Virus record (IMG/VR): IMGVR_UViG_3300036987_000310
Coordinates: 128,001 to 192,000 of that record
DNA: 64,000 nucleotides
Strand: one strand, 5' to 3'
Source of the DNA: a virus
Taxonomy: Duplodnaviria > Caudoviricetes
Part shown: one piece after another, positions 13,418 through 14,584 of the stretch
Layout of the letters: every line of letters starts with the position of its first letter
Numbering within the stretch: the stretch's first letter is position 1
Notes under the pieces: model-generated
The model's database searches: none
What the model was told of the DNA's origin: nothing
The model's input: only the letters and a program-made list of their open reading frames with translations
Program-made: the position numbers and the translations under genes

Positions 13418-14584
13418 CTATTCGACGCTGAGAATGACGCCAGCACCCACGGTCTTATTGCCTTCACGGACAGCGAATCGCATGCCGGGCTCCATCCCAA
13501 CCGGTTTCATGAGCTCAAGGCCCACCTCGGCATGGTCTCCGGGAGAAATGAACTCCAGAGAGCCAAAGTCGACAATGGAGCCGGTGACGTTCGTGGTTCC
13601 AAAAAAGAATTGGGGCTTGTACCCTGGGGAGACTGCCGTGTGCCTTCCTCCCTCTTTCGTCGAAATAACAAACAGTTCTGCTCGAGCCTTGGTGTGGGGC
13701 TTCACAGATCCTGGCGCGACGAGAACTTGTCCATGGACCACTTCGTCGCGCTTCACGCCGCGCAAAAGCAGTCCACAATTCTCTCCGGCGCGAGCCTCAG
13801 GCTGGTCTTTGTGAAACATCTGGATTCCAGTGACAACCACTTGCCTGGGCTTCGAGTCTTCGTCCACCAAGCCGATGATCTCCACCTTCGCACCGACCGG
13901 AAGAACTCCGCGCGCGATTCTTCCGGTTACCACCGTTCCGCGCCCTTCGATAGTGTGAACTCCCTCAATAGGAAGCATGAACGGGGACTCGAAGTCGCGC
14001 TTGGGGTCTGGAATATGGGTGTCCAGAGCTGCGAGCAGCTCGCGGACGCACCCTCCCTCGTCAGCCGGGTTGCGAAGCGCTCGGAGCGCAGACCCCTGCA
14101 CGATGGGAGAACCGTTGTACCCTTGAGCTTCCAAATACTCGGTCGTCTCCATGACGACCAGTTCCAAGAGCTCCGGGTCCGAGATGTCCACCTTGTTGAT
14201 GAACACCACCATCTTGTCAACGCCAACCTGCCTGGCCAAAAGGATGTGCTCCTTGGTCTGGTGCTGCGGACCTTGCGACCCGTCCACCAGAAGCACGGCG
14301 CCGTCCATTTGGGCCGCTCCCGTGATCATGTTCTTGATGTAGTCGGCGTGTCCAGGACAGTCGATGTGAGCATAATGCCTCGTGGCGGATTCGTACTCGA
14401 CGTGAGACACGGCAATGGTCACCGTCTTGTTCTCGTCGCGCACAGTGCCGCCTTTTGCGATGTCGGCGTAGCTCTTGGTTTTTGCAAGGCCGGCCAGAGA
14501 CTGCACAGCCAAAATGGCCGCTGTCAAAGTGGTCTTGCCATGATCGACATGCCCGATGGTTCCAACGTTCACATGAGTTTTCAT
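13418..14584 (-). CDS. tuf: Elongation factor Tu (divergent)
   Basis: [38 protein letters not shown]-terminal [13 protein letters not shown]. Confidence 0.95.

Follow-up and report, generated by a model that had tools for sequence, protein, structure and literature searches.

We analysed a stretch of 64,000 nucleotides from a virus (Duplodnaviria; Caudoviricetes), which corresponds to positions 128,001 to 192,000 of the IMG/VR record IMGVR_UViG_3300036987_000310 and is called the window below, focusing on a gene for the translation elongation factor EF-Tu at positions 13418..14584 on the minus strand. The gene starts with ATG and encodes a protein of 388 amino acids plus a stop codon, called P0001 here, which was assigned to EF-Tu by matches in Pfam, NCBIfam and PDB. 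It is located within an array of 32 tRNA genes predicted by ARAGORN (464..26264, minus strand), all of which are on the EF-Tu strand, the nearest to the EF-Tu gene being tRNA-Pro(ggg) at 13292-13369 and tRNA-Pro(tgg) at 15471-15545. The source record is a virus of 376,674 bp; it carries direct terminal repeats, and its completeness is estimated at 100% (IMG/VR). The main finding is that P0001 is a mosaic, in which a switch I block of a type used by housekeeping EF-Tu of several bacterial phyla has been placed by recombination on the backbone of a phage lineage.

Three domains are recognized in P0001: the G domain at residues 2-192 (14009..14581, minus strand; Pfam PF00009), in which the motifs G1-G5 are intact and the catalytic His79 corresponds to H84 of E. 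coli; domain 2 at residues 216-288 (13721..13939, minus strand; PF03144), with Gln255 at the position of E. coli E259 and with a KP insert; and domain 3 at residues 293-387 (13424..13708, minus strand; PF03143), with Gly329 at the position of E. coli R333. The Pfam E-values were 2e-51 for GTP_EFTU, 2e-18 for D2 and 8e-28 for D3, and the cut-offs of three NCBIfam models for the EF-Tu subfamily were passed (NF000766, 517 vs 449; NF009372, 513 vs 479; NF009373, 504 vs 452). A PDB search returned EF-Tu chains only, with a best E-value of about 1e-136. The AlphaFold model built from an alignment of 52 sequences had a mean predicted local distance difference test (pLDDT) value of 84 and was closest to the closed GTP-form structures 1EFT, 1EXM and 1TTT (template modelling scores of 0.87-0.88), low confidence being confined to residues 46-59 of switch I. 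P0001 has the G1 motif GHVDHGKT, the Mg-binding T56 (T61 in E. coli), DCPGH with H79, NKVD and SAL, and it retains the T-stem contacts Q329, T338 and E378 (E. coli numbering). The GTPase motifs, the Mg-binding Thr, the catalytic His and the T-stem residues are kept in all or nearly all of 120 family members. When ten residues known to contact aminoacyl-tRNA were listed (H66, E215, D216, F218, T228, E259, N273, Q329, T338 and E378), seven were kept in P0001.

The protein starts with MKTHVNVG and is about 8 residues shorter at its N-terminus than E. coli EF-Tu. The short N-terminus appears to be genuine, because no ATG, GTG or TTG is present among the 33 stop-free in-frame codons 5' of the start; a GTIGH motif is found 7-9 residues from the N-terminus in 103 of the 120 closest relatives. 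No Shine-Dalgarno sequence is seen directly 5' of the start (window 14585-14640, minus strand), and the only AAGGAG is about 40 nucleotides upstream. Between P0001 and its relatives, the ratio of nonsynonymous to synonymous substitution rates (dN/dS) was 0.04-0.08 for the backbone and 0.08-0.23 for the switch I block, with synonymous sites near saturation. Judged from these characteristics, P0001 looks like an intact and functional EF-Tu. A first-pass annotation of the window, made from the letters alone, had described an intact phage-encoded EF-Tu in a tRNA region, with complete GTPase motifs, a catalytic His and no N-terminal extension, and each of these points agrees with the complete genome, the residue table and the upstream codons.

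The same annotation had pointed out that switch I does not read RGITI, and the alignment bears this out: K53-T54-V55-T56-I57 of P0001 aligns with R58-G59-I60-T61-I62 of E. coli. The loop fits the consensus ADIAKGG(T/V)VRD..K(T/I)(V/L)T(I/V), which is two residues longer than the canonical loop, and residues 40-57 are identical to those of the bacterial locus L036. The annotation stated that this variant occurs in the Planctomycetes-Verrucomicrobia-Chlamydiae (PVC) superphylum; this holds for Planctomycetota, Verrucomicrobiota and Omnitrophota, but it was too narrow, since tuf genes with the same loop were found in named bacterial genomes of Myxococcota, Elusimicrobia, Patescibacteria and Dehalococcoidia as well. 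A second, related loop form (..RRD.TKILT.) occurs in other phyla. The variant form is the housekeeping EF-Tu form of those bacteria, because it was the only tuf in all ten bacterial genomes tested, which represent Planctomycetota, Verrucomicrobiota, Myxococcota, Elusimicrobia, Patescibacteria and other groups (with two copies in one genome); its scores on the equivalog model TIGR00485 were 645-706 bits. We take the cation-binding glycine of switch I to be G59 of E. coli EF-Tu, and at the position of that Gly the variant form has Thr. In translational GTPases, the presumed ligands of the monovalent cation are a Gly of switch I and an Asp of the P-loop (Atkinson 2015, PMC4342817).

The switch I block is a self-contained module, because positions outside it barely separate the two switch types of bacteria: only three co-vary with the type, all weakly, and at these three the P0001 family keeps the state of its phage clade. 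On a backbone tree of 83 EF-Tu sequences the switch I type changed at least seven times, on branches not all of which are well supported. Both types were also seen among close relatives within Patescibacteria and Chloroflexota (L037, L039 and L055 vs L062, L084 and L087; L065 vs L073). Exchange of the block may be general in the evolution of tuf, beyond phages.

The grafted block covers residues 25-59 (14408..14512, minus strand), as delimited by a sliding-window comparison and the maximum chi-square test. In a tree of 156 rows, the P0001 family is nested inside a strongly supported clade of viral EF-Tu, the other members of which have the canonical RGITI (L031 as the sister, then L009, and then L010, L030, L025 and others), and the variant-type tuf genes of bacteria form a separate clade. 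The sliding window showed a sharp change of affinity along the protein: residues 21-60 are 17-23% identical to L031 and L009 and up to 93% identical to tuf of Planctomycetota, whereas the rest is mostly 65-97% identical to L031 and L009 and mostly 35-70% identical to bacterial tuf. For the block itself, identity to the sister lineages L031 and L009, which are fully canonical, was 14-17%. The Maynard-Smith maximum chi-square test placed the breakpoints at residues 25 and 59 with a chi-square of 66, and none of 300 permutations was as extreme; between these breakpoints, each of the 26 informative sites sides with the bacterial type, and elsewhere 101 of 123 side with L031.

Phylogeny of the backbone agrees with this picture. 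In a tree computed under LG+C20 after removal of the block, the family joined L031 and L009 (support 99) and was placed within a clade of 26 rows that contained no sequences other than those of the family and of its canonical-switch kin (support 100). Union of the family with variant-type tuf was rejected for the backbone by the approximately unbiased (AU) test, with a log-likelihood difference of 279 and a p value of 2.9e-36. The states shared by the family and these kin alone are E259Q and R333G, both present in 100% of the kin, and the KP insert, present in about half of them. The case for a mosaic is built on the AU test of the backbone and on the maximum chi-square test, and not on an AU test of the block alone. 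Since the canonical blocks of the phage clade all group together, canonical switch I is ancestral there, and the P0001 family is the one that changed. On its two sides the block borders on the P-loop and on SHVEY...DCPGH, which show 87-97% identity in every group, and such near-invariant flanks would allow homologous exchange. Within the block, 19 positions vary in the variant-type tuf of bacteria; P0001 agrees with the Planctomycetota gene L126 at 16 of them, the median for 56 bacteria being 7, which argues for shared descent of the block with bacterial variant-type tuf rather than for convergence.

Concerning the donor, we searched with the block only, basing on matches over 47 residues. The best identities were 91% in Planctomycetota (300 genomes; L126), 86-89% in Myxococcota (200 genomes) and 83-85% in Verrucomicrobiota (200 genomes), and Planctomycetota lead only marginally at the variable block positions. 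The top matches are genuine bacterial tuf genes, the backbones of which are 56-58% identical to that of P0001 where full-length. The donor was thus a bacterium with variant-type tuf, belonging to one of several candidate phyla; most simply it was a host of the ancestral phage, because recombination needs both genes in one cell. The suggestion of the first-pass annotation that the variant gives a hint of the host lineage is borne out to the extent that the block points to such a bacterium, and it stops short of a phylum because several fit about equally well.

The 120 closest proteins in a collection of 5.8 billion proteins are 78-97% identical to P0001, and many are on contigs of 100-440 kb; relatives in IMG/VR are 74-89% identical and on contigs of 62-436 kb. 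The variant loop, RD..K[T/V][V/L]TI, is retained in all of the 120, a conservation far beyond chance. Bacterial EF-Tu was compared by using 151 Planctomycetota genomes, the best 80 hits of a scan of species-representative genomes (at least 600 stretches) and phylum-wide searches, and the closest one found was at most 62% identical to P0001. Because of this low identity to any bacterial EF-Tu found, the gene belongs to an old, phage-specific tuf lineage of huge phages and is not a recent copy from a host, which was the outcome that the first-pass annotation had named as fatal to its proposal. The PHROGs collection has no EF-Tu family, and the GenBank phage collection gave no genuine close relative. 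Phage-type EF-Tu genes with canonical switch I were also seen in the bacterial assemblies L044 (Albitalea terrae S-16, NZ_QUSW01000009.1, a cultured isolate), L063, L035 and L129; the L063 assembly additionally has a genuine housekeeping tuf (744 vs 506 bits on TIGR00485), and no tRNAs are present within 3 kb of the copies in L044, L063 and L035. These copies may be prophage-borne or may represent an accessory paralogue.

We next explain the pockets that receive the aminoacyl end of the tRNA. E259 lines the pocket for A76, as in the ternary complex 1TTT, and R333 is a site of pulvomycin-resistance mutations. The side-chain pocket is lined by D216 and F218 (PMC6386890). In P0001, D216-V217-F218 of E. 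coli corresponds to Gly208-Val209-His210 (13955..13963, minus strand). We compiled a residue table from 103 bacterial sequences, 120 family members, 16 canonical-switch phage kin and 8 sequences of a second viral clade (L011-L013, L017, L019, L022, L026 and L029), which is nested within the variant-type tuf of Planctomycetota. D216, present in all 103 bacteria, is Gly or Ser in 119 of the 120 family members, other than Asp in 9 of the 16 kin, and Gly (6) or Asn (2) in the second clade. F218 is found in 101 bacteria; His occupies the position in the entire family and in 7 of the kin, and the second clade has His (5) or Tyr (3). E259 is invariant both in bacteria (103/103) and in the second viral clade (8/8), and it is Gln in 116 of the family and in all the kin. 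Likewise, R333 is kept in 102 of the 103 bacteria and in all 8 sequences of the second clade, and is Gly throughout the family (120/120) and the kin (16/16). V104, found in about 99% of bacteria, is Leu in 100% of each of the three viral groups.

As a consequence of D216G and F218H, the aminoacyl pocket of P0001 is predicted to be enlarged and less acidic. Together with the short N-terminus, E259Q and R333G, these phage-specific changes probably alter which aminoacyl-tRNAs are bound well, and the combination of pocket changes and tRNA arrays suggests a factor tuned to a different spectrum of aminoacyl-tRNAs and working with the tRNA set of the phage. The first-pass annotation had raised the possibility that this EF-Tu serves atypical tRNAs, and the changes in the pocket may provide a tangible reason for it.

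The gene context is consistently rich in tRNAs. The whole phage genome has 39 tRNAs, one of which is a suppressor, and in 22 phage loci examined, covering three viral EF-Tu lineages, the EF-Tu gene is among tRNA genes of the same strand. EF-Tu is the sole translational GTPase found in the phage genome, where neither an EF-Ts gene nor a Fic/Doc gene was found. The GC content of the EF-Tu gene is continuous with that of its flanks, and DNA of the phage occurs in groundwater and coal-seam metagenomes, no RNA dataset being among the public runs listed for it.

Several neighbouring features were recorded in the window. EF-Tu and RNAs are targets of ADP-ribosylating toxins, and the tRNA array includes, at a distance of 6 kb from EF-Tu, a gene for an ADP-ribosylglycohydrolase (20468-21415, minus strand; PF03747, E-value 1e-38); its product could reverse ADP-ribosylation of translation components. 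Two HNH endonuclease genes (1405-2034 and 6571-7191, both minus strand) are located between tRNA genes; they are likely to encode homing-type nucleases, which could promote recombination of the array. At 28413-44536 there is a cluster of large tail-fibre-like genes, including those for a protein of 1283 amino acids with four Laminin_G_3 domains, for collagen-repeat proteins and for a protein of 821 amino acids with a Peptidase_S74 intramolecular chaperone domain; within the cluster, 33310-37423 holds four successive open reading frames of the same strand (313-376 amino acids), and neither of the two that were scanned had a Pfam match. In the tRNA array of a related phage, ARAGORN predicted a tRNA with the four-base anticodon taag (L009:12811-12888) beside tRNA-Leu(caa), possibly a frameshift-suppressor-like tRNA. 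Two other related phages have tRNAs with unmodified-looking A34 anticodons, Asp(atc) at L002:1801-1872 and Ile(aat) at L030:5758-5828; such anticodons are unusual in bacteria. The EF-Tu genes of the second viral clade (L011, L013, L017, L019 and L022) lie in tRNA arrays made up mainly of genes for Leu, Ser, Tyr and Phe tRNAs.

On the basis of these results, the explanation that we consider fairly probable is that P0001 is a functional EF-Tu of a phage lineage, equipped with a switch I cassette of host type and with an altered cargo pocket. P0001 would bind GTP and aminoacyl-tRNAs, those of the phage and perhaps also those of the host, and would deliver them to host ribosomes, so that elongation is kept going or biased during infection. 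Its nucleotide exchange would be through host EF-Ts or spontaneous, because the phage has no EF-Ts of its own. In an ancestor of the family, homologous recombination with a variant-type housekeeping tuf replaced about 35 residues (25-59), and the most likely reason for this exchange is that it fitted the phage EF-Tu to a host whose translation machinery works with the variant switch. The simplest reading is that switch I must suit something in the translation machinery of the host, such as the ribosome, a tRNA or another factor.

Several observations weigh against parts of this explanation. When only the 42 columns of the block were used, the AU test was not significant (log-likelihood difference 25.6, p 0.088), and the candidate donor phyla were not separable by block identity. 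The matching to the host is inferred. P0001 scored 508.2 bits on TIGR00485, slightly below the cut-off of 522.4 bits, and changes at three conserved residues of the aminoacyl-tRNA pocket could mean that tRNA binding is altered or partly lost. The phage-type copies in bacterial assemblies, including one isolate, indicate that the lineage is not strictly viral. Finally, searches for the motif and for EF-Tu combined with Planctomycetes found no paper describing the variant switch I.

A more specific version, which we put forward as tentative and think unlikely to be right in full, is that the phage EF-Tu serves an elongation channel of its own, carrying aminoacyl-tRNAs that are poorly handled by host EF-Tu, with switch I as a swappable cassette. 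The cargo would be the divergent tRNAs of the phage itself, tRNAs charged with acidic or bulky residues, suppressor tRNAs or mis-acylated ones, and the cassette would be exchanged by recombination so as to dock on the ribosome type of the current host. In this version, replacement of the switch I Gly may also point to a distinct mode of GTPase activation common to several bacterial phyla.

It is also conceivable, at a distinctly low probability in our estimation, that P0001 is not mainly a translation factor and acts instead as a decoy or cofactor for defence sensors and toxins that work through EF-Tu (Avs7-type sensors, Gol/Lit-type complexes or contact-dependent toxins), or as an aid to capsid folding or replication, as host EF-Tu is for T4 and Q-beta. 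Avs7 indeed uses EF-Tu as a structural cofactor, and the major capsid protein of T4 is bound by EF-Tu (PMC13581612); the changes in P0001 at D216, F218 and E259, which are invariant in bacteria, and the missing N-terminal arm could be understood in this way. However, the residues for GTP binding and hydrolysis, Mg binding and T-stem contact are all kept under strong purifying selection, the gene is always within tRNA arrays and on the strand of the tRNAs, and the pocket changes are of a kind that widens aminoacyl specificity and does not abolish it (PMC6386890).

The first-pass annotation had proposed that the variant loop protects the phage factor from cleavage by Lit, so that translation continues after host EF-Tu is attacked. 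Lit cuts EF-Tu at Gly59-Ile60 (PMC3014915, T4 review), and in an alignment to an E. coli-type reference this bond is replaced in P0001 by Thr54-Val55 (14420..14425, minus strand), so the stated absence of the Gly-Ile site is correct at the sequence level. The type IV Thoeris caspase, which is promiscuous for Arg, cleaves the E. coli factor after R45 and R59 (bioRxiv 10.1101/2024.10.24.620036), and both positions are Lys in P0001; more generally, defence systems repeatedly target EF-Tu or use it as a cofactor (PMC13581612). Nevertheless, we regard counter-defence against Lit or this caspase as an improbable cause of the variant loop. The loop is the sole housekeeping form in many phyla and, according to the analysis above, reached the phage gene through recombination with a tuf of this kind; the proposal is weak because the loop brings P0001 closer to the housekeeping EF-Tu of the probable host type instead of setting it apart, and in such a host both factors would be equally sensitive or resistant at the loop. 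Moreover, other members of this phage clade have the canonical switch I and manage without the variant loop, an Arg is left in it (VRD) for a caspase with broad use of Arg, and the Thr at the Doc site is retained (T378, corresponding to T382 of E. coli). The Lit family PF10463 (Peptidase_U49) was found in none of the 151 Planctomycetota genomes and not in the phage, a result that is uninformative because it was absent from all 14 control genomes too. Resistance of P0001 to Lit itself is plausible and probably beside the point, and the swap was probably not a route of escape from a protease acting on switch I.

Convergence, in which the variant switch I would have arisen without recombination by point mutations and an insertion of two residues under shared constraint, we consider very improbable. 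At 16 of the 35 block positions, bacterial variant-type EF-Tu sequences are at least 70% conserved, so that a part of the similarity does reflect constraint, and the weak AU result for the block can be counted on the same side. Constraint does not account, however, for the 16 matches to one Planctomycetota tuf at the 19 freely varying positions, nor for informative sites that are uniformly of bacterial type between sharp boundaries at invariant motifs; in addition, no intermediates were seen, the sisters L031 and L009 being fully canonical. An artefact, in which a bacterial tuf was mis-assembled or mis-binned into a viral contig, has a negligible probability: most EF-Tu matches in the GenBank phage collection are indeed bacterial tuf in mislabelled or contaminated records (about 50% identical) and some members of the phage clade are in bacterial assemblies, but the genome is complete with terminal repeats, over 20 independent viral contigs (up to 436 kb) show the same gene in the same tRNA-array context, no bacterial tuf found approaches the gene in identity, and its GC content does not depart from that of its flanks.

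The functional phage factor with a recombinant switch I thus remains our preferred explanation, and its novel points are the evidence that switch I was grafted onto the backbone of a phage lineage, the finding that the loop is a module whose type has switched repeatedly, and the link to engineered pocket variants. EF-Tu has two discrete, modular forms of switch I, and the replacement of one by the other in a phage lineage is a natural domain-swap experiment, suggesting that the loop must match something in the translation apparatus of the host. Viral EF-Tus have repeatedly changed D216 and F218, the positions that engineers mutate for unusual amino acids, which hints at altered cargo specificity linked to the large tRNA arrays. 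The block also offers a way to trace the host range of phages with genomes of 250-440 kb, a group that is abundant and uncultured.

Finally, we compare P0001 with known systems. EF-Tu genes have been reported in huge phages, with a proposed role in maintaining translation efficiency (Al-Shayeb et al. 2020, Nature 578:425, PMC7162821). As in that study, the present gene is in a genome larger than 200 kb and rich in tRNAs and translation genes, and the length of 376,674 bp, the 39 tRNAs and the tail-fibre genes are those of a bona fide huge phage with a large tRNA set; the searched text of the article lists the genes, and that text held no analysis of switch I, pockets, lineage or recombination. 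Compared with the housekeeping EF-Tu of E. coli (TufA/B) and Thermus (TIGR00485; PDB 1EFT, 1EXM and 1TTT), P0001 is 52-56% identical and has the same three domains, GTPase motifs, catalytic His, Mg-binding Thr, T-stem contacts and closed GTP-form fold. It differs in being phage-encoded within a tRNA array, in the N-terminal arm shorter by about 8 residues, in the KP insert of domain 2, in D216G, F218H, E259Q, R333G and V104L, and in having no cognate EF-Ts gene in the genome. The variant-type housekeeping EF-Tus (for example L126, L036 and L165) are 83-91% identical to P0001 in residues 25-59, with the same loop longer by two residues and K-T-V-T-I, but only 56-58% identical in the remainder, where P0001 groups with the canonical-switch phage EF-Tus; the kinship is through the block only.

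For the pocket, the nearest parallel is provided by the engineered factors EF-Sep and EF-pY, which were selected for binding of phosphoserine- or phosphotyrosine-tRNA and carry D217G and either F219Y or F219G in Met-inclusive numbering, equivalent to D216 and F218 (PMC6386890). The same two positions are changed in P0001 and the Asp-to-Gly substitution is identical. EF-Sep and EF-pY are, however, laboratory products with the additional changes H67R, E216N/V and N274W, which are absent from P0001. The second viral clade offers a natural parallel: its members resemble P0001 in the variant switch I, the location in tRNA arrays, the loss of D216 (to Gly or Asn) and of F218 (to His or Tyr) and V104L, and differ in that the whole gene, not a mosaic, was captured from Planctomycetota and in that E259 and R333 are kept. 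The loss of D216 and F218 and the change V104L are therefore convergent in virus-borne EF-Tu.

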